Below are positions 255 through 21,576 of a DNA stretch of 21,650 bases, in pieces. Below the pieces are notes generated by a model. That model had not been told where the DNA came from. It searched no databases and worked only from the letters and a program-made list of their open reading frames with translations. Both the position numbers and the translations under genes were made by a program. The stretch lies in NCBI GenBank assembly GCA_943355025.1, contig CALRDW010000015.1, forward strand, positions 1 through 21,650, read 5' to 3'. The stretch's first letter is position 1, and each line of letters begins with the position of its first letter. The DNA comes from Candidatus Magasanikiibacteriota bacterium (GTDB taxonomy: Bacteria > Patescibacteriota > Patescibacteriia > Magasanikbacterales > 2-02-FULL-50-9b).

Positions 255-309
255 TGAAAATAAAAACCGTTTCTGCAGCAGACTCTTTGGAGAGTTCGAC
301 AGAAACGGT
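255..309 (-). terminator. Intrinsic terminator downstream of the 343..1347 gene
   Basis: 10-bp inverted repeat accgtttctg (266-275) / cagaaacggt (300-309) with a ~24-nt loop. On the minus strand it is followed by a T-run (plus-strand a-rich 255-266). It lies ~34 nt past the TAA at 343-345. Confidence 0.55.
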
Positions 310-342
310 TGTGTTCGCGCGTCCGGTGTGGCGCTTCAGGAT

Positions 343-1347
343 TTATTGAACTGCTACACGTGTGGTCTCCTCAAATTGCTGGATTACCCCGCTTCGCTGG
401 AGCACATACGGAATGACCTGTACTTTGCGCACGGTGACGTGTTTGTGTGCAAAGGCCTCGAGATCAGTCGCAATTGTTGCTGAATACTCGAGTTCTTCGT
501 GGCTAAAGACTTGAAATAATAGAATCGGTGACGTTCGGTTGCCGCGATCAGCAAGCGAATGGTCGACAACCTCGGCCGCGCGTTTAATATTCGCGATGTG
601 CTCGGCATTGCTCAGCAAGTCAGTGCGGTAGGTTAGGAAATCGCTTCCCACCCGCCATGGGCGAATATTCGAACCGCAGACAATTGTGCGCTCAGAGTGA
701 CGCTGAACCACAGATCCCGGCGACTGACGTTTGCGTCGGTAGCAGCTTGCGAGAAGCGCGAGATCATGGACGAGCTCGTCAGAGAGTTTGAGCGCTTTCG
801 CGCCACGCAGAAATCGCGCATTGCCATTTATTCCGCCGTCCGGCAGTGCGAAGTCCTCCAGACCAAACCACTCGAGTGTATCCGGACGCAGAATATCAAT
901 CGCCCCAGTAACAACATTGTACCGGCGAAGAAATCCCTGCACTGTATCGCCTGGGAATGCCAGTTTAATATTTTGCAGGAATTTGAGGCCAGCAGCAGTT
1001 GCCACCGCATCATTCTTCTCAAAGGCTGCGCATTCTGTGTGAATGCCAGGGAGGATCAGAAATCCTCGGCCGTTTTCCGCAGATGTTTTGATGGTGTTTT
1101 GTATCCGCAAAAGGTTGGCTTCGCCAGTATTTGGAATTCCGCCCGCAAGCGTGACATAACGTCCAGCATTATAAGGAAGAACACTTTCGGGGATCCGCCC
1201 ATCCATACAATCACTTTCTTGAATGCAATGTGTGGTGTTTGCAAGAAACAATTCGCACTCACTCGCCTCACCGATTCTTCGCTTTCGCGCAACTTCTGCG
1301 AGCGCTTCGAAGAGTTGAATCGTATTTTCAATGAAGTTCACTGACAT
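343..1347 (-). CDS. Hypothetical 334-aa protein with a beta-carbonic-anhydrase-like Cys-x-Asp-x-Arg ... His-x-x-Cys metal-site motif; paralog of 4450..5517
   Basis: Long ORF with ATG start at 1347 and its own promoter and terminator. C47-M-D49-G-R51-I-P-E-S and H103-T-E-C106 reproduce the beta-CA zinc-ligand pattern and spacing (CxDxR, 56 residues, HxxC). Compare E. coli Can C42/D44/R46/H98/C101 with RVPAE after the Arg. An Asn aligns with the RNxxN asparagine. The C-terminal ~200 aa is unassigned. Confidence 0.75.
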   Translation of the reverse strand: MSVNFIENTIQLFEALAEVARKRRIGEASECELFLANTTHCIQESDCMDGRIPESVLPYNAGRYVTLAGGIPNTGEANLLRIQNTIKTSAENGRGFLILPGIHTECAAFEKNDAVATAAGLKFLQNIKLAFPGDTVQGFLRRYNVVTGAIDILRPDTLEWFGLEDFALPDGGINGNARFLRGAKALKLSDELVHDLALLASCYRRKRQSPGSVVQRHSERTIVCGSNIRPWRVGSDFLTYRTDLLSNAEHIANIKRAAEVVDHSLADRGNRTSPILLFQVFSHEELEYSATIATDLEAFAHKHVTVRKVQVIPYVLQRSGVIQQFEETTRVAVQ

Positions 1348-1383
1348 GTGTGCCGCCGTTGGTTGTTCGTGTTCGGTAAGGTA

Positions 1384-1404
1384 GGGCCCTGACTTTCAGG
1401 GCCC
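1384..1404. promoter_or_regulatory. GC-rich stem-loop at the 5' end of the 343..1347 transcript; also a T-tailed hairpin when read on the plus strand
   Basis: gggccctga (1384-1392) / tcagggccc (1396-1404), a perfect 9-bp stem with a 3-nt loop. It sits a few nt downstream of the predicted minus-strand -10. On the plus strand it is followed by tttattg. Confidence 0.4.
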
Positions 1405-1407
1405 TTT

Positions 1408-1435
1408 ATTGTACCTGTTTATTTAAAAAAGTCAA
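1408..1435 (-). promoter_or_regulatory. Sigma70-like promoter for the 343..1347 gene (TTGACT-16-TACAAT)
   Basis: Minus-strand -35 TTGACT = plus agtcaa 1430-1435; 16-nt spacer; -10 TACAAT = plus attgta 1408-1413. Predicted 5' UTR ~60 nt. Confidence 0.5.
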
Positions 1436-1448
1436 GCTAGGGCAGTAT

Positions 1449-1494
1449 AAAAAAGAAAAAGCCCACGTTCAGAATTTGAGGTTCTGAACGTGGG
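1449..1494 (-). terminator. Intrinsic terminator of the NfeD-flotillin operon
   Basis: 13-bp perfect stem cccacgttcagaa (1462-1474) / ttctgaacgtggg (1482-1494) with a 7-nt loop. Followed on the minus strand by a T-run (plus-strand aaaaaagaaaaa 1449-1460). Lies 58 nt past the stop at 1552-1554. Confidence 0.75.
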
Positions 1495-1551
1495 CTTCAC
1501 GGTGTTCTGGTTAGAACCCGTGATGGGCCTGGGGCCGAGACTGATGCTACC

Positions 1552-3471
1552 CTAGACAGATGCGCTGTTGCCTTTGCTGGCCTTTGCTTCTGCCGGGGCA
1601 GCGGTCGCACTTTCGCGTCCGTGCGTAGCAGGCGCATCACCCGACTTTTTGACGCCGACGTGTTCCGCAACTGCACTGACGAGGTCGCCCATTTTTTGCA
1701 GGCTCTGTTCGATCGCATTGGTCGTTTTCGGCCCAGCTGAGCCCAGGAAACCTTCAATCATGCGAGCGCTTGATGTGCCCTGCATGAACGAGTCCTGGAT
1801 TTTTGCGAGGTCGCTCGGCGAGCCGATGAGCGTTGCTGTGACTTTCTCGAACAAATGAACCGAGGCCTGAGCTGTCGCGATCCGCACATCAGCCTCGCGG
1901 TTGATGTGGAGCTGCGCGATCACAAACTCTTGCGCAGCTTTACCATTTTTATCACGAGCTTCGAGCTCGGGAATCAAAACGTCGGTAACGCGGGACTGGT
2001 CAACTTTGACCTGCTCCGCCTGAACTTGAATCGGCACGAGAGCCAATGCTTTTTCGCCTTCCGCCTTTTTAACGTTGGCATTCGACTCAGCGTCAGCTTT
2101 CTTTTCGACCGCAATGGCGTCAGCCGTCGCCTTCGTTGTGATGGCTGATGCTTCTGCTTCTGCCGCCTTCTTTTTCGCGTCGGCCTCAGCGTTCAGCTTG
2201 TAGGCCGCGCCATCCGCCGCACGCTGCGTGGAGACGTAGGCTGTTTCAGCTGTTGCTTGCGCCGTAATGACCTGCTTTTGCTTGTCACGTTCGGCCGTGG
2301 CCACAATCCCGACAGTGATCACTGCCTGGTTTGCTGTTTCGCGCTCAGCTTCCGCCAAAGCGCGTGCTGTTTCAGCATTAACACGGACCGTTTCCGCAGT
2401 GGCAACCGCTGCCTGACGCTCCCGTTCAGCAACTTCGACGCTCTGATCAGCAACCGTAAGCGCGCGCTTCTTTTCTTTTTCCGCAACTTCCGTTGCCTGC
2501 GAGCGAACTTGCTCGGCAACGTCGAGCTGCTGCTGCTTGTTTACTTCCGCCAGCTGAACAGTTCGTTCAGAATCAATGCGTGCCGTTCCAGCCGCCTGGT
2601 TCTGTTCTGCGTTGACCTGAGCAATTTTTGATTTCTGATTTGCTTCGGCAACAGCTTGCTGCTGCTCGAGCGCCAGAATATCTTGGCGGGTTTTCACGTC
2701 CTGAGTTTTACGTGCCAGCTCACCTTCGCGTTCTCTTTGATTTTGGATCGTCTGGGCCGCCTGGGTGACTTCGGCAATCGTCTGCAATCCTTGCGCATCG
2801 AAGATGTTGTCCCTGCGGAGATTTTTCGGATCCGTTTGATCGAGTTTTGAGATCGTCGCTGTTTCAAGCGTCAATCCGTTGTGGGCAAGATCTCCTTCGA
2901 TCATCAGTGTGACTTGCTTGATGAACTCATCACGCTGGGTGTTGAGCTCTTCAAGTGTCTTCGTCGCTGCCACATTGCGCAGCGCCGACACCAATTTGTC
3001 TTCGACAAGCGATGTCACAAATGCGTCGTTGTTCATTTGATCACCAAATGAACGCGCGGCGCTTTTGATGCTTTCTTCGACAGGCGGAACCCGAACGAAG
3101 AACTCTGCTTTGATGTCAGCCCGCAGCTTGTCTTTCGTAATGAGAGCATCAACGCCCTCACGTTTAACCTCGAGCCGTTTCGAGCCGAGTTGTACCGTGA
3201 CAATTTGATGAATGACAGGGAACACAATTGCGCCGCCGTCTTGAACAACTTTTATACCACCCATGCCCGTGCGGACAAATGCCTCATTGGCTTTCGTCTT
3301 TACGTACAGTTTGGTGATAATAAGTAGGAGCGCTGAAACGAGCGTCAGCACAATGCCGACGACGATCAGGATGGAGGTTGGGAGGCTCCCGATTGGGTGC
3401 CCCATAATGCTCGCGGCGATTGGCCCCGCGATAAACGCAATTCCGAGAAACATGAGTAGGCCGAGTGGCAT
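1552..3471 (-). CDS. Flotillin-like SPFH/band-7 family protein (YqiK/FloT type), 639 aa
   Basis: N-terminal TM helix, then an SPFH core (GGIKVVQDGGAIVFPVIHQIVTVQL...). About 300 aa of Ala/Glu/Gln-rich coiled-coil (EA repeats) follow. GGAG Shine-Dalgarno ~8 nt upstream of the ATG at 3471. Immediately preceded by an NfeD-like gene, as in yqiJ-yqiK and yuaF-floT operons. Confidence 0.9.
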   Translation of the reverse strand: MPLGLLMFLGIAFIAGPIAASIMGHPIGSLPTSILIVVGIVLTLVSALLLIITKLYVKTKANEAFVRTGMGGIKVVQDGGAIVFPVIHQIVTVQLGSKRLEVKREGVDALITKDKLRADIKAEFFVRVPPVEESIKSAARSFGDQMNNDAFVTSLVEDKLVSALRNVAATKTLEELNTQRDEFIKQVTLMIEGDLAHNGLTLETATISKLDQTDPKNLRRDNIFDAQGLQTIAEVTQAAQTIQNQREREGELARKTQDVKTRQDILALEQQQAVAEANQKSKIAQVNAEQNQAAGTARIDSERTVQLAEVNKQQQLDVAEQVRSQATEVAEKEKKRALTVADQSVEVAERERQAAVATAETVRVNAETARALAEAERETANQAVITVGIVATAERDKQKQVITAQATAETAYVSTQRAADGAAYKLNAEADAKKKAAEAEASAITTKATADAIAVEKKADAESNANVKKAEGEKALALVPIQVQAEQVKVDQSRVTDVLIPELEARDKNGKAAQEFVIAQLHINREADVRIATAQASVHLFEKVTATLIGSPSDLAKIQDSFMQGTSSARMIEGFLGSAGPKTTNAIEQSLQKMGDLVSAVAEHVGVKKSGDAPATHGRESATAAPAEAKASKGNSASV

Positions 3472-3552
3472 TGGATTCTCCAGTGTGCTGCATTTTTACC
3501 TGCAGCGGTGAAAACTTACAAACAGGCTTGTCGATTACTACTGTTCATCGAC

Positions 3553-4281
3553 TCAGCGGGAAGACAGCGTCGACGGAACATCCGCTGACACTGTATAGAT
3601 TCGCCGAAGCGAATCGTAACTTTGGATGAGAATAGGGCTGCCTTTTGTGAGCGCTCCATTCGTCGTTTTGCATCCAATTTGTTGTAGGTCACCACGCAAA
3701 TCGCGGACCTGCGCCTGACCGTAATTTTCATCAACACTAAGCGTCACAATGCCGCAGCAGCCGACCAGTTGATCGGCGGTAAGTGCGTAGGTTTCTGTTG
3801 TCGGCAAAATCCGGGCAACAAAGCCTGCGATCAACCGATGGATCAGAAGCGAAAGAGCTCCAGCGCCAACCAGCGAAATCCATACGCCGACTTCAATTGA
3901 CATGCCGCTTTCCGTCAGCACTTTGTTGCCGCAGTAACCTGCGGCGCCAAACACCAACATGAGCAGCATGAGCGAAACGGTAATTGGCACTTTGCCAATA
4001 CCGAGAATGACCAGCAATCCTCGAGGCAACGAGGTCCGAGCGCCACGCACTTGCGGAGCGAGATCGGGCCGCAGGTGCTTCAATTGATTGTGATCATCAT
4101 CATGATCATGGTCGTGGTGCGCATCATGGCCACCCAACGAGTGACCGAGGCCGCTATCATGACCGATGTCATGTCCAGCGCTGTCGTGCCCACCACCCGC
4201 GGCAACTCCAAGTGCCAGGACAATTCCCAGCAGAAGTGGAATTTCGAACACGAGATTTTGCCAGAGTAACACGGTGTCCAT
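3553..4281 (-). CDS. NfeD-like membrane protein (YqiJ/DUF1449-type flotillin partner) with a His/Asp-rich loop, 242 aa
   Basis: TM helix, then a 33-residue His/Asp/Gly-rich segment (GHDSAGHDIGHDSGLGHSLGGHDAHHDHDHDDDH). Three more TM helices follow, then a C-terminal ~70-aa Gly/Val-patterned segment typical of the NfeD OB-fold beta-barrel. GGAG Shine-Dalgarno 8 nt upstream of the ATG at 4281. An 81-nt gap separates it from the flotillin gene. Confidence 0.8.
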   Translation of the reverse strand: MDTVLLWQNLVFEIPLLLGIVLALGVAAGGGHDSAGHDIGHDSGLGHSLGGHDAHHDHDHDDDHNQLKHLRPDLAPQVRGARTSLPRGLLVILGIGKVPITVSLMLLMLVFGAAGYCGNKVLTESGMSIEVGVWISLVGAGALSLLIHRLIAGFVARILPTTETYALTADQLVGCCGIVTLSVDENYGQAQVRDLRGDLQQIGCKTTNGALTKGSPILIQSYDSLRRIYTVSADVPSTLSSR

Positions 4282-4349
4282 TTGATATCTCCGTTGAGTT
4301 GTGAAGGTTCTGGAAAGCGCTCAGACGGATACTCCGATAAGCGCACTAA

Positions 4350-4378
4350 TTTGTATCAGAATTCGGCTTGGTTGTCAA
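4350..4378 (-). promoter_or_regulatory. Candidate promoter of the NfeD-flotillin operon (TTGACA-17-TACAAA)
   Basis: Minus-strand -35 TTGACA = plus tgtcaa 4373-4378; 17-nt spacer; weak -10 TACAAA = plus tttgta 4350-4355. Sits directly downstream of the terminator of the 4450..5517 gene. Confidence 0.4.
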
Positions 4379-4381
4379 GAT

Positions 4382-4467
4382 AAAAAAAGAGCCGCCCTAC
4401 CCATGTGCCAGTGCGGCAAACGGGTGAGGCGGCGAGCTTCTCGCGTGGGTTATCGCGCGAGAAGCTC
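4382..4467 (-). terminator. Composite 3' structure and terminator of the 4450..5517 gene
   Basis: A perfect 12-bp inverted repeat gagcttctcgcg (4434-4445) / cgcgagaagctc (4456-4467) has the TAA stop (4450-4452) in its loop. A second imperfect hairpin gccgccctaccc (4391-4402) / gggtgaggcggc (4422-4433) is followed on the minus strand by a T7 run (plus a-run 4382-4388). Confidence 0.5.
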
Positions 4468-5517
4468 AACGGTGTAATCGCTGTCAACAATTGCAGGAAC
4501 GAAGTCGAGTCTGTCGAATACGTCAGGAGCGCAAAGATGAGCAACATCGCGCATGGTTTGCACGATATTTCGAGCGGAAATCTCTGCGAGGCCGCGCATG
4601 TCTGTATCGTCGAACGGAACTTGAGGAAGCAACAGCGCTCTGCTAGATCTGGTTGGATCTTGGAGAAGATTTTGCCGCAATACTCCAATGCCAACGCGCG
4701 CTGATTCCGCGATTCCACCAAAACGGTGGTCGACAACTAGGGCGAGCGTTGTCAAATCTGCTCCGCCAACGCGACCGCCCATGACAAATATGCGTTCGCA
4801 GTGTTCGCGGGCAAGATGCGCTGCGATTTCGGACTGGAGAAACCATCGGTGTCCCTCCGCGAGCACCAACAGATCCTCGACAACACCGCCATTCATTTTC
4901 GCGAATGCGCGACATATGTCAGCTTCTGTTAAGTGCGCAAGAGAGATCCACTGGTTTTCCTGTGCTGAAAATACGTAGACTTTTCCGTCGTCCGTATCAT
5001 ATTTTGCAAGCACGGGAGTGATGCGCAGCGTGTGCGGCAGGCATTCGATATTTCGCACGAACTCCATGGCTGAATTGAACGCAGCGGTTTTGTCGCAATT
5101 ATGAAATGCACAACCAAGGTCGCGATCATTTCCCGATTCGTGGAGCATAACAGGGAGTAGGAGTCCTTGTTTTTTGCTCGTTTGTTGTGCGCGACGTGCG
5201 CGGCCAATCAAATCATCCTGGAATGTACTGAGACCGAATAACGGCGGGACACTTCCGAAGAAACGGTAGGGTTGATAACTACCCAAGGGTAGTCCCAAAC
5301 ATTTTCCGCTGAGCATTCTCCCATCGCCACAGCGTGTTACTGCTATGGAATTATTAAGCCTGTGTAGTGTAGCTACTCTGCGTGCCTCTTCTGCGAAAAA
5401 CTGATCTTGTGTGTGACGCGTGATGCCTAAGTAGTAGGCCCGTAAATCCTCCGGAAGTTGGTGGCGATGTGCCAGCGCTGGGGAAATAGTTCGTCCGATT
5501 CCCGCGGCCAAATTCAT
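4450..5517 (-). CDS. Hypothetical 355-aa protein, divergent paralog of 343..1347 with CGDGR ... H ... C motif
   Basis: The ATG at 5517 has a GAGGAG Shine-Dalgarno 7 nt upstream. The TTG at 5589 listed in the ORF track lies upstream of the predicted promoter and TSS. The protein shares C-G-D-G-R, GLLLPVMLHE and CAF blocks with the 343..1347 product (CMDGR, GFLILPGIHTE, CAAF). It carries a ~7-residue insertion between the His and the second Cys. Confidence 0.7.
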   Translation of the reverse strand: MNLAAGIGRTISPALAHRHQLPEDLRAYYLGITRHTQDQFFAEEARRVATLHRLNNSIAVTRCGDGRMLSGKCLGLPLGSYQPYRFFGSVPPLFGLSTFQDDLIGRARRAQQTSKKQGLLLPVMLHESGNDRDLGCAFHNCDKTAAFNSAMEFVRNIECLPHTLRITPVLAKYDTDDGKVYVFSAQENQWISLAHLTEADICRAFAKMNGGVVEDLLVLAEGHRWFLQSEIAAHLAREHCERIFVMGGRVGGADLTTLALVVDHRFGGIAESARVGIGVLRQNLLQDPTRSSRALLLPQVPFDDTDMRGLAEISARNIVQTMRDVAHLCAPDVFDRLDFVPAIVDSDYTVELLAR

Positions 5518-5592
5518 TGAGACACTCCTCGAAATGTGTTGGAGGTTTATAGACAAAGCCGAACGAAAAAGTTTTTCGGGCGGCAACAACTC

Positions 5593-5620
5593 ATGCTACT
5601 CCAGCCACGCGAGGCGTCAA
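5593..5620 (-). promoter_or_regulatory. Sigma70-like promoter of the 4450..5517 gene (TTGACG-16-TAGCAT)
   Basis: Minus-strand -35 TTGACG = plus cgtcaa 5615-5620; 16-nt spacer; -10 TAGCAT = plus atgcta 5593-5598. Predicted leader ~68 nt ends in the GAGGAG Shine-Dalgarno. Confidence 0.45.
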
Positions 5621-5734: not shown

Positions 5735-6580
5735 TTAGAAAGATCCTGAGAAGACGATGCCGGTGTAGCCAGGGGTCGCGGTTGGCGCAAGGCGGAAGTT
5801 TGTCTGCTGCTGCTTGCTTGCTGTTGGCGGTTTTGCTTGCGAGGGTGGGCCCAAATAATCCCACACGCCCCACGCACCAATGCCGACTGCTGCCACTGCG
5901 AGTCCGATTGAAACAAACTGCTCTGTGCGCGCAGAGCGAACAAGTCCGTCGTACCGATCCTTATCGGCTTGCACAACTACGGCCGTCCCGAGCGCGTCGC
6001 TTGCCGTGCCTCGTGCGACAATGTATGTCGTCAGTGATGCAACCCCGAGCACAGTTGCTGCGCCGAATTTCACAAGTGGAAGCTCAGGGGCGGCTGCTGG
6101 CGGATCAGATTCGCGCACTGTTGCGGTTGGCGCATGACTGAGATCAATCAATTTTTGTCGCGCAGTCGCTTCTGCAAGTTCAACCGCGGCGACGCGAGCT
6201 TTGAGCGCGGTGTAGCGCGCGGCAGCATCGAGCTTCATGTCGTCGGCAGCGCCCATGAAATTTTTGACGCGGTCGTAGATTTCAATCGCGCGCCAGAGAT
6301 TACCAAGCGCCTCATAGGCTCGCCCCGCGTTGTAGAGCATGGCCGGCTTGCCGGTCAGTTCAAACAGATGCAGATAGGCCCACGCTGCTTTTTCAAAGAG
6401 CTTCGCGTCGAAATCTTCTTTTGCTTGGGCTGCTTCTTTTTCGTATTGGTTTACAATGCTCGGCGCTGCTGCTGCGGGGGCTGATGTTTTACGACCCGCC
6501 GCCGAAGCGTTCGTTGGTGCCAGCGTGATGCTTGCCGCCGCATAACAGACAAGTGCTGTGCACAATGGCTTGTACCGCAT
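5735..6580 (-). CDS. Secreted or membrane-anchored TPR-like hypothetical protein (281 aa from ATG 6580)
   Basis: The ATG at 6580 is preceded by a GGAGG Shine-Dalgarno (plus cctcc 6585-6589). The N-terminus MRYKPLCTALVCYAAASITLAPTNASAAG looks like a signal peptide with AXA-type cleavage. A helical TPR-like segment (AAWAYLHLFELTGKPAMLYNAGRAYEALGNLWRAIEIY) follows. There are two C-terminal hydrophobic helices. The upstream in-frame ATG at 6619 has no Shine-Dalgarno. Confidence 0.7.
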   Translation of the reverse strand: MRYKPLCTALVCYAAASITLAPTNASAAGRKTSAPAAAAPSIVNQYEKEAAQAKEDFDAKLFEKAAWAYLHLFELTGKPAMLYNAGRAYEALGNLWRAIEIYDRVKNFMGAADDMKLDAAARYTALKARVAAVELAEATARQKLIDLSHAPTATVRESDPPAAAPELPLVKFGAATVLGVASLTTYIVARGTASDALGTAVVVQADKDRYDGLVRSARTEQFVSIGLAVAAVGIGAWGVWDYLGPPSQAKPPTASKQQQTNFRLAPTATPGYTGIVFSGSF

Positions 6581-6689
6581 GATTCCTCCAGTATTCTGTG
6601 GAGCCCGAAAGTGGGTCATCAGAATAAATCACGGTAACACAAAACCGCGAGTTTGGCAAGGCCAGAGGGAGTCGAGCCCCAGGCCTCCG

Positions 6690-20766: not shown

Positions 20767-20787
20767 TCGTGTACTTTGCAGAATGTT

Positions 20788-20796
20788 TGTTATACT
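20788..20796 (+). promoter_or_regulatory. Extended -10 element TGtTATACT upstream of the last gene
   Basis: The 9-mer tgttatact is identical to that at 16910-16918. The ATG at 20815 is 18 nt downstream. No Shine-Dalgarno. Confidence 0.45.
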
Positions 20797-20814
20797 GTAG
20801 ACAATTGTTCCTTT

Positions 20815-21576
20815 ATGAAAAATCCTGCCAAACTTACGCTTTTTATCAGTTTGTTTACAATTGTTTTTTTTGATCTACGTGCTCTTGGTTCTGGCATGCT
20901 GTACGATGTAGAATCGTTAATTGAAAATCTTGGCGGCGTTACCTATTTGTATTCAACAATTGGAACTATTTTTGCAATTTTTGGTGCGTTTACTATTTTA
21001 TCAGAGTGGGAACGATGGAAGGCGCTTGTGTCAGCTGTTAAAGATGAAGTGAGGTCGCTTCAAGAGCTGTGGCTGTGGTCAAAGCATTTTCCGTTATCAG
21101 TTCGAAAGAGATTCCGCCAGCTTCTCAAAGCGTATGTTTTGAGTGTACAGAGTAAGGGCTGGATGCTGCTTGAAAAAGGACAGCGACATAAGTCAGTTGA
21201 TGATATTTTGTCGCAGATGCACGATGAAATTTTTTTACTTGCGAAGGACAAAACTCATTTGCTCGATACATCATTTTCGCTTTTTACAGAGCTCTTAAAA
21301 TATCGAAACGAACGATTGAATTTGAGCGCCGCAAATATGCCTGCGATTTTACGCAACGTATTTATTTTGTCGGATGCTTTGCTCATAGGCCTCTCACTTT
21401 TTATCGGTGTGCGTAGCATTTCTCTCGCATATATTTTTACACTTGCGGTTGCAGTGCTCGGCTATTCAATTTATTTGCTCATAGATGACCTCGATCATCC
21501 TCTTCAGGCGGGTGGGTGGCATTTGACGACGAAAGATTACGAGGAGTTGTCGAGGACGTTCGAAGAGGAATCGTAA
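20815..21576 (+). CDS. Hypothetical integral membrane protein (TM, ~110-aa helical soluble region, two C-terminal TM helices), 253 aa
   Basis: The ATG at 20815 follows the extended -10. The ORF-track TTG at 20776 precedes it. Hydrophobic helices LTLFISLFTIVFF, IGTIFAIFGAFTIL, ILSDALLIGLSLFIGV and LAYIFTLAVAVLGYSIYLLI. No family recognised. Confidence 0.6.
   Translation: MKNPAKLTLFISLFTIVFFDLRALGSGMLYDVESLIENLGGVTYLYSTIGTIFAIFGAFTILSEWERWKALVSAVKDEVRSLQELWLWSKHFPLSVRKRFRQLLKAYVLSVQSKGWMLLEKGQRHKSVDDILSQMHDEIFLLAKDKTHLLDTSFSLFTELLKYRNERLNLSAANMPAILRNVFILSDALLIGLSLFIGVRSISLAYIFTLAVAVLGYSIYLLIDDLDHPLQAGGWHLTTKDYEELSRTFEEES

Follow-up and report, generated by a model that had tools for sequence, protein, structure and literature searches.

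A predicted CsoSCA2-type carbonic anhydrase encoded beside a YqiJ-flotillin gene pair in candidate phyla radiation bacteria

Homologues of the carboxysomal carbonic anhydrase CsoSCA that occur outside carboxysomes were named "CsoSCA2" by Sutter, Kerfeld and Scott (2022; PMC9164163), who described compact proteins with an N-terminus of ~40 residues arranged as two helices, an active and a defunct domain and the full set of active-site residues, reported them from phyla of the candidate phyla radiation (CPR), including Candidatus Uhrbacteria (three genomes), and noted that they were unstudied biochemically. In the YqiJ-YqiK system of E. coli and the NfeD2-FloT system of B. subtilis, a gene for an NfeD/YqiJ-like protein is followed by one for a membrane-anchored SPFH flotillin. 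To our knowledge, the cargo of bacterial flotillins and the reason for their pairing with NfeD/YqiJ proteins are still unclear. Here we describe a stretch of 21,650 nucleotides from a Candidatus Magasanikiibacteriota bacterium (contig CALRDW010000015.1; this whole stretch is called the window below), in which two genes of the CsoSCA2 type, here A and B, lie on either side of a yqiJ-flotillin pair. We suggest that both encode cytoplasmic enzymes of this family, with B standing alone and the A-type protein functionally tied to the YqiJ-flotillin scaffold, a reading that we consider probable with moderate confidence. The listing of open reading frames (ORFs) places the four genes on the minus strand as follows:

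343..1347, minus strand: gene A, a soluble CsoSCA2-type beta-carbonic-anhydrase homologue of 334 aa from the flotillin-linked A-clade; predicted active site C47, D49, R51, H103, C106, H217 and E219, with H-x2-C spacing.
1552..3471, minus strand: SPFH protein of 639 aa, flotillin-like and of the YqiK/FloT type, which has a membrane hairpin at its N-terminus and a long stretch rich in Ala and Glu.
3553..4281, minus strand: membrane protein of 242 aa, YqiJ-like (NfeD-like), in which a loop rich in His and Asp (about residues 30-66) is conserved.
4450..5517, minus strand: gene B, a soluble CsoSCA2-type beta-carbonic-anhydrase homologue of 355 aa; predicted active site C63, D65, R67, H126, C136, H239 and E241, with the family-typical H-x9-C spacing.

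The A-clade comprises four representatives among 1.84 billion clusters, namely A, P0004, P0005 and P0006, whose members are 30-36% identical to A (32% for P0004). The flotillin link is present in all of these lineages (4/4), the order being yqiJ, flotillin and A-type gene on one strand with the A-type gene directly downstream. In locus L002 a YqiJ_N protein of 236 aa and a Band_7 protein of 643 aa precede P0004, on the contig of P0006 the corresponding proteins have 228 and 629 aa, and the same three-gene order is found in L006, from the Candidatus Uhrbacteria metagenome-assembled genome (MAG) RIFOXYB2_FULL_45_11, which is probably the same lineage as P0006. The contig of P0005 (locus L088) ends within a flotillin gene, of which it carries only the 3' part, and has no yqiJ; P0005 lies 152 bp downstream of this partial gene. 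A scan of genome contigs returned one true relative only, the Uhrbacteria MAG. The genes outside the trio differ from locus to locus: L002 has Cpn10 and Wzy_C, L006 has a peptidase and BacA, and the window has B; across loci the flotillins are 57-64% identical and the YqiJ proteins 38-39% (the window flotillin is 57-58% identical to those of L002 and L006), while RpsB is 73% identical between the window and L001, the locus of the closest B homologue. The gene of a soluble enzyme that is kept beside yqiJ and a flotillin gene across such deep divergence would be a concrete flotillin client to test, and the adjacency hints at an enzyme client for bacterial flotillin. The reading frame of P0005 (L088 1472-2489) has a stop at residue 260, past which the homologous frame continues (...SLKR, stop, GNSREPICFFVV...); an error in sequencing, a pseudogene or recoding of the stop codon could each account for this. 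Locus L007 was rejected as a relative, its match being a 30-residue one at chance level.

Neither A nor B has a Pfam match at E <= 1 or an NCBIfam match, and the A-type subfamily as a whole is undetectable with Pfam. Single-sequence searches of the PDB with either protein gave noise only; in word-indexed homologue searches A retrieved itself only and B a single homologue (P0003, 40% identical), and the profile version returned six matches. A and B are placed in the family by the comparison of profiles with profiles and by fold. An exhaustive HMMER search with a profile built from A, B and P0003 collected 178 cluster representatives of the family, mostly of ~350 aa. Against an independent profile of bulk CsoSCA2 members only, B aligned with a probability of 99.4% (hhalign, E 5.5e-21, 320 columns), and the four-member A-clade profile matched the bulk family with 97.3% (profile-profile, E 2.4e-11). 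The two window proteins had been proposed to be clear paralogues, and a pairwise alignment (BLASTP, 22% identity over 206 residues, E 3e-5) indicates that the relationship is real but remote; the motifs on which the proposal had been built are present, CMDGRIPES and GIHTECAAF in A, and CGDGR and MLHESGNDRDLGCAF in B. No transmembrane or hydrophobic segment was found in either protein.

Conservation was counted in an alignment of 66 diverse homologues. The positions equivalent to C47, D49, R51, G69, H103, C106 and H217 of A are invariant (66/66), and the Glu two residues past the later His (E219 in A) is kept in 62 of the 66. Since it is invariant in all of these homologues, the Cys-x-Asp-x-Arg...His...Cys arrangement, which the preliminary description had taken for the zinc ligands of a beta-carbonic anhydrase, is not a chance pattern. 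The Pfam domain PF20686 (CsoSCA_cat, the CsoSCA catalytic domain) is matched by 45 of the 66 members and Pro_CA by 10. Searched against the PDB, the family profile finds CsoSCA (8thm, E 9e-20, over chain residues 126-448 of 462; 2fgy, E 1e-18), and ordinary beta-carbonic anhydrases, carbonyl sulfide (COS) hydrolase and carbon disulfide (CS2) hydrolase rank far behind. The active-site residues of CsoSCA are C173, D175, R177, H242, C253, H397 and E399 (PMC9164163, Table 2), its zinc ligands have been confirmed (PMC12646314), and all seven residues have counterparts in A and B. An AlphaFold2 model of A based on the 66-sequence alignment reached a pLDDT of 90.3 and a pTM of 0.88 (a run on a 3-sequence alignment gave a pLDDT of 42 and was unusable), and Foldseek with this model returned three CsoSCA entries at E ~1e-12. 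The alpha/beta fold of beta-carbonic anhydrases was found for both proteins, as the preliminary description had anticipated, and the model of A opens with two short helices (residues 2-26 and 28-37). Conserved ligands and matching fold together support the assignment of A and B as beta-class carbonic-anhydrase-like zinc proteins.

For the C-terminal 150-200 residues of A and B an unknown fold had been claimed; they are the defunct second beta-carbonic-anhydrase-like domain of CsoSCA, and they hold the conserved His and Glu that correspond to H397 and E399. The spacing between the zinc-binding His and the second Cys had been described as canonical in A and as enlarged by an insertion in B. It is indeed longer in B, but this is the family norm, with x9 in 106 of 148 representatives and x10 in 13, and x2 is confined to the A-clade and P0121; the canonical-looking HxxC of A is thus the unusual state within the family. 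Compared with carboxysomal CsoSCA (CsoS3; PDB 2FGY, 8THM, 9G4T), A and B share the catalytic and defunct domains over a full-length match, but their sequence identity to it is ~16-18% and they lack its N-terminal domain of ~140 aa, which serves Rubisco binding and hexamer formation; the catalytic Cys is residue 47 of A and residue 63 of B, and the match to 8thm starts at chain residue 126. No carboxysome, Rubisco, cso or cbb families were found in the window. A likeness also exists to the DAB system (DabA with the PF00361 protein DabB), where a beta-carbonic-anhydrase-like protein is genetically tied to a membrane protein and where CsoSCA has been reported as the closest structural homologue of DabA (2026 preprint). 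However, the window has no PF00361 (Proton_antipo_M) gene, the membrane partner here is a scaffold and not an ion-translocating subunit, and A and B keep the H397-equivalent His, which has been proposed as a proton shuttle and is replaced by Leu in DabA (2026 preprint). The invariance of this His favours an ordinary, non-vectorial carbonic anhydrase.

The carbonic anhydrase family to which A and B belong is already known, including from Candidatus Uhrbacteria (PMC9164163), and the suggestion that they form an undescribed family does not hold. B fits the CsoSCA2 description fully, with ~350 aa, a two-helix N-terminus, an active and a defunct domain, all active-site residues and a position outside carboxysome loci. 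Both proteins differ in being too divergent for the Pfam CsoSCA models, the route by which that family was collected, and the A-clade differs further in its H-x2-C spacing (H-x9/10-C in most of the family) and in its conserved yqiJ-flotillin adjacency, absent from 80 bulk loci. Flotillin, SPFH and Band 7 are not mentioned in PMC9164163, and literature searches that paired carbonic anhydrase with flotillin or NfeD brought up no relevant paper; CsoSCA2 itself is named in only one other publication. What seems new is the A-type subfamily, invisible to Pfam, with its H-x2-C spacing and its place beside flotillin, an association for which we found no prior description.

Three transcription units, A, yqiJ-flotillin and B, are predicted from the following signals, in agreement with the preliminary description as far as prediction goes, although the yqiJ-flotillin promoter was recognised by eye and fails the -10 rule of the scan:

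255..310, minus strand: predicted intrinsic terminator 3' of gene A, a hairpin at about 310..265 followed by a U-run (-27.5 kcal/mol, z -3.3).
1408..1435, minus strand: promoter-like site 5' of gene A, TTGACT-16-TACAAT (consensus scan 10/12).
1458..1498, minus strand: predicted intrinsic terminator 3' of the flotillin gene, a 17-bp stem followed by a T-run.
4350..4378, minus strand: possible yqiJ-flotillin promoter, TTGACA-17-TACAAA (weak).
4382..4433, minus strand: predicted intrinsic terminator 3' of gene B, a hairpin followed by U7 (-35.7 kcal/mol, z -4.4; 0/200 shuffles fold as well).
5593..5620, minus strand: promoter-like site 5' of gene B, TTGACG-16-TAGCAT (consensus scan 9/12, weaker than that of A).

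In L002, too, the A-type gene is set off from the flotillin gene by a terminator and then a promoter, where the equivalent terminator lies at 3251..3279 and the position homologous to the promoter-like site of A reads TTGACA-16-TACAAT (11/12 matches). The yqiJ and flotillin genes are on the same strand and separated by 81 bp. B could start earlier, at a TTG at 5589, but this is unlikely, and the ATG at 5517 is preferred because of the position of the promoter-like site at 5593..5620. Three further public assemblies contain the same locus, its flotillin protein identical and its gene order unchanged (ENA ERZ27280297; NCBI GCA_943359715.1, contig CALRIC010000026.1; Logan ERR5863107), so that the arrangement is not an assembly artefact.

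From homology, fold, conserved active-site residues and conserved gene adjacency we infer zinc binding, carbonic anhydrase activity and a physical association of A with flotillin, which would combine as follows. Each of the two proteins would be a fused pseudo-dimer of two beta-carbonic-anhydrase-like domains, with a single active site in the first, where Cys, His and Cys would hold the zinc and the Asp-Arg pair would position the zinc-bound water, while the defunct second domain would contribute the His and Glu equivalent to H397 and E399 of CsoSCA. The most likely reaction is CO2 + H2O <-> HCO3- + H+. B would be a stand-alone cytosolic copy, and the A-type enzyme would be recruited to, or regulated at, a flotillin microdomain on the cytoplasmic face of the membrane, supplying or removing bicarbonate and protons beside membrane transport or energy machinery. 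Such a role bears on the handling of CO2, bicarbonate and pH in genome-reduced CPR bacteria. The host itself is probably a CPR (Patescibacteria) organism with Candidatus Uhrbacteria among its relatives.

The main rival to a functional tie holds that A and B are both free cytosolic CsoSCA2 carbonic anhydrases and that the position of A next to flotillin is inherited CPR synteny without coupling, which we regard as somewhat unlikely though deserving serious weight. Several observations speak for it and against our proposal. Both in the window and in L002 the flotillin gene is separated from the A-type gene by a strong predicted terminator and a further promoter, so the two genes are adjacent but probably not co-transcribed; the A-clade is sampled from four lineages only (L006 being a Candidatus Uhrbacteria MAG), all probably of one CPR group, and the adjacency may reflect local synteny by descent; the homologue of B lacks the flotillin link, and in 80 metagenome loci of the bulk family no homologue of flotillin or YqiJ was found within 6 kb (0/80). 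Carboxysomal CsoSCA, moreover, is active without partners (cited in PMC9164163). The enzymatic side of the proposal has its own weak points, as A and B have no Pfam or NCBIfam matches of their own, A alone reaches a marginal 39.5% hhalign probability against the bulk-family profile, and no CsoSCA2 protein has been characterised biochemically (PMC9164163); the profile of the A-clade by itself retrieves nothing from the PDB, so the good model of A owes much to an alignment made up mostly of bulk-family sequences. Set against inherited synteny, the three-gene order has been kept while the outer flanks differ at every locus, it has been kept at the deep divergence given above for the A-clade, YqiJ and flotillin, and all known A-clade members have the flotillin link.

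Two further explanations concern the chemistry. One or both proteins could bind zinc without being catalytic, serving for example to sense CO2/bicarbonate or as structural partners in the flotillin scaffold, and this would suit the fast evolution and strong divergence of the A-clade (30-36% identity vs 57-64% for its flotillin neighbour), its altered His-Cys loop and the in-frame stop in P0005; we nevertheless find it improbable, given that seven catalytic residues, including the Asp-Arg pair and the His and Glu, are kept in A, B and their clades, which would be unexpected if catalysis had been lost. The idea that the substrate is a small molecule other than CO2, for instance carbonyl sulfide or carbon disulfide, as entertained in the preliminary description, starts from the shared beta-carbonic-anhydrase fold and appears very improbable: the matches to COS and CS2 hydrolases cover the shared zinc-motif region or a single domain only and are no better than those to ordinary beta-carbonic anhydrases, the protein matched over the full length is CsoSCA, whose carbonic anhydrase activity is proven, the proposed proton-shuttle His is invariant, and no sulfur-metabolism genes were found nearby. 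Nothing favours COS or CS2 over CO2 hydration.

Returning to the proposed tie between A and the scaffold, both membrane partners resemble the known pairs, with an SPFH protein carrying an N-terminal membrane anchor preceded by the gene of a YqiJ-like membrane protein. The flotillin matches Band_7 in Pfam (E 5.6e-9) and FloT in NCBIfam (E 9e-17, below the curated cutoff), has its hydrophobic segments at residues 1-59 and has no sequence relative in the PDB at E <= 1e-3; the YqiJ-like protein matches YqiJ_N (E 2.3e-7) and has three or four hydrophobic segments. Unlike in YqiJ-YqiK and NfeD2-FloT, a third gene for a soluble enzyme consistently follows, and the YqiJ loop is strongly His/Asp-rich. 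This loop (GGGHDSAGHDIGHDSGLGHSLGGHDAHHDHDHDDDH; window 4084-4194, minus strand, at about residues 30-66) has seven His that are invariant across the YqiJ homologues of the window, L002 and L006, and its probable orientation, judged from a cluster of Arg and Lys ahead of the following membrane segment, is towards the cytoplasm. The loop might bind metal, and a zinc-enzyme gene is close by, two genes away in the same cluster. Cage-like assemblies have been shown for eukaryotic flotillin and for HflK/C. A bolder version of our proposal, which we hold to be rather unlikely, is that a YqiJ-flotillin cage on the cytoplasmic face specifically encloses or docks the A-type enzyme, giving these ultrasmall CPR bacteria a membrane-attached CO2/bicarbonate compartment, in which the His/Asp-rich loop might deliver or buffer zinc; this would follow the logic of the carboxysome, a carbonic anhydrase in a protein enclosure, with neither shell nor Rubisco, and if true it would make the A-type protein the first genetically hard-wired enzyme client of bacterial flotillin.

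The preliminary description had presented the two paralogues as bracketing the NfeD-flotillin module and had asked whether the linkage recurs. It does so for the A-type gene, as described above, and fails for the homologue of B and for all bulk loci. P0003 (locus L001) adjoins rpsB-tsf, as B does, with no flotillin nearby; a conserved design of two carbonic anhydrases around a flotillin module is rejected, and the "bracketing" is half coincidence. At L001 5843-7051 (minus strand) the B homologue is followed by a gene in convergent orientation, whose product resembles a NiFe-hydrogenase large subunit (HycE/NuoD-like). Two full-length CsoSCA2 genes stand in tandem at L031 5980-8520, L029 15-2253 and L004 10001-12245, so paralogue pairs like A and B recur in the family.

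CsoSCA2 proteins are widespread, and the neighbours of the bulk members are diverse. Upstream of them, PF00361 (Proton_antipo_M) is found in 14 of 63 loci, all of one lineage, ATP synthase epsilon in 7 of 63, SulP in 4 and Pro_CA_2 in 3; downstream, SulP and P-II are found in 4 loci each. In the metagenomic lineage of L008-L031, a PF00361 (DabB/NuoL-like) gene is followed by CsoSCA2 and then by a small ORF (e.g., L010 4418-5956, 5992-7041 and 7278-7628; L008 4304-5866, 6004-7071 and 7160-8746), and some of these loci end with SulP. These loci look like a DAB-like inorganic-carbon pump with CsoSCA2 replacing DabA. In 7 of the 63 metagenome loci CsoSCA2 stands directly after an F1Fo ATP synthase operon (e.g., L003, L092 7144-9077 and L093 942-2875), and in P0152 (L003 8354-9674) the gene starts 2 bp past atpC, which suggests that in CPR-like genomes a carbonic anhydrase is co-expressed with ATP synthase. 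P0121, the other H-x2-C variant, was rejected as a flotillin-linked member; it follows ATP synthase genes, being preceded by atpD-atpC and a small ORF. The shared theme of these neighbours is membrane ion and energy machinery, which fits a membrane-proximal role of the A-type protein; flotillin, ATP synthase, the NuoL-like antiporter subunit and SulP taken together suggest that the family works at the membrane, which also bears on the origin of DabA-type vectorial carbonic anhydrases from CsoSCA-like ancestors.

The remaining genes of the window include rpsB, tsf and glycolysis genes. Between rpsB and B (5735-6619, minus strand) lies a gene whose product of 294 aa has a single weak TPR-like repeat and, at its C-terminus, a hydrophobic segment; it has no family assignment, and L001 has an unrelated gene (392 aa) in this place. 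A search with the PADLOC defence models gave no match for A, B, the flotillin, YqiJ or this neighbour. At 20776-21576 (plus strand) the window encodes a protein that matches the Bestrophin-like domain PF14023 (E 2.9e-26); the anion channels of the bestrophin family include some that let bicarbonate pass.

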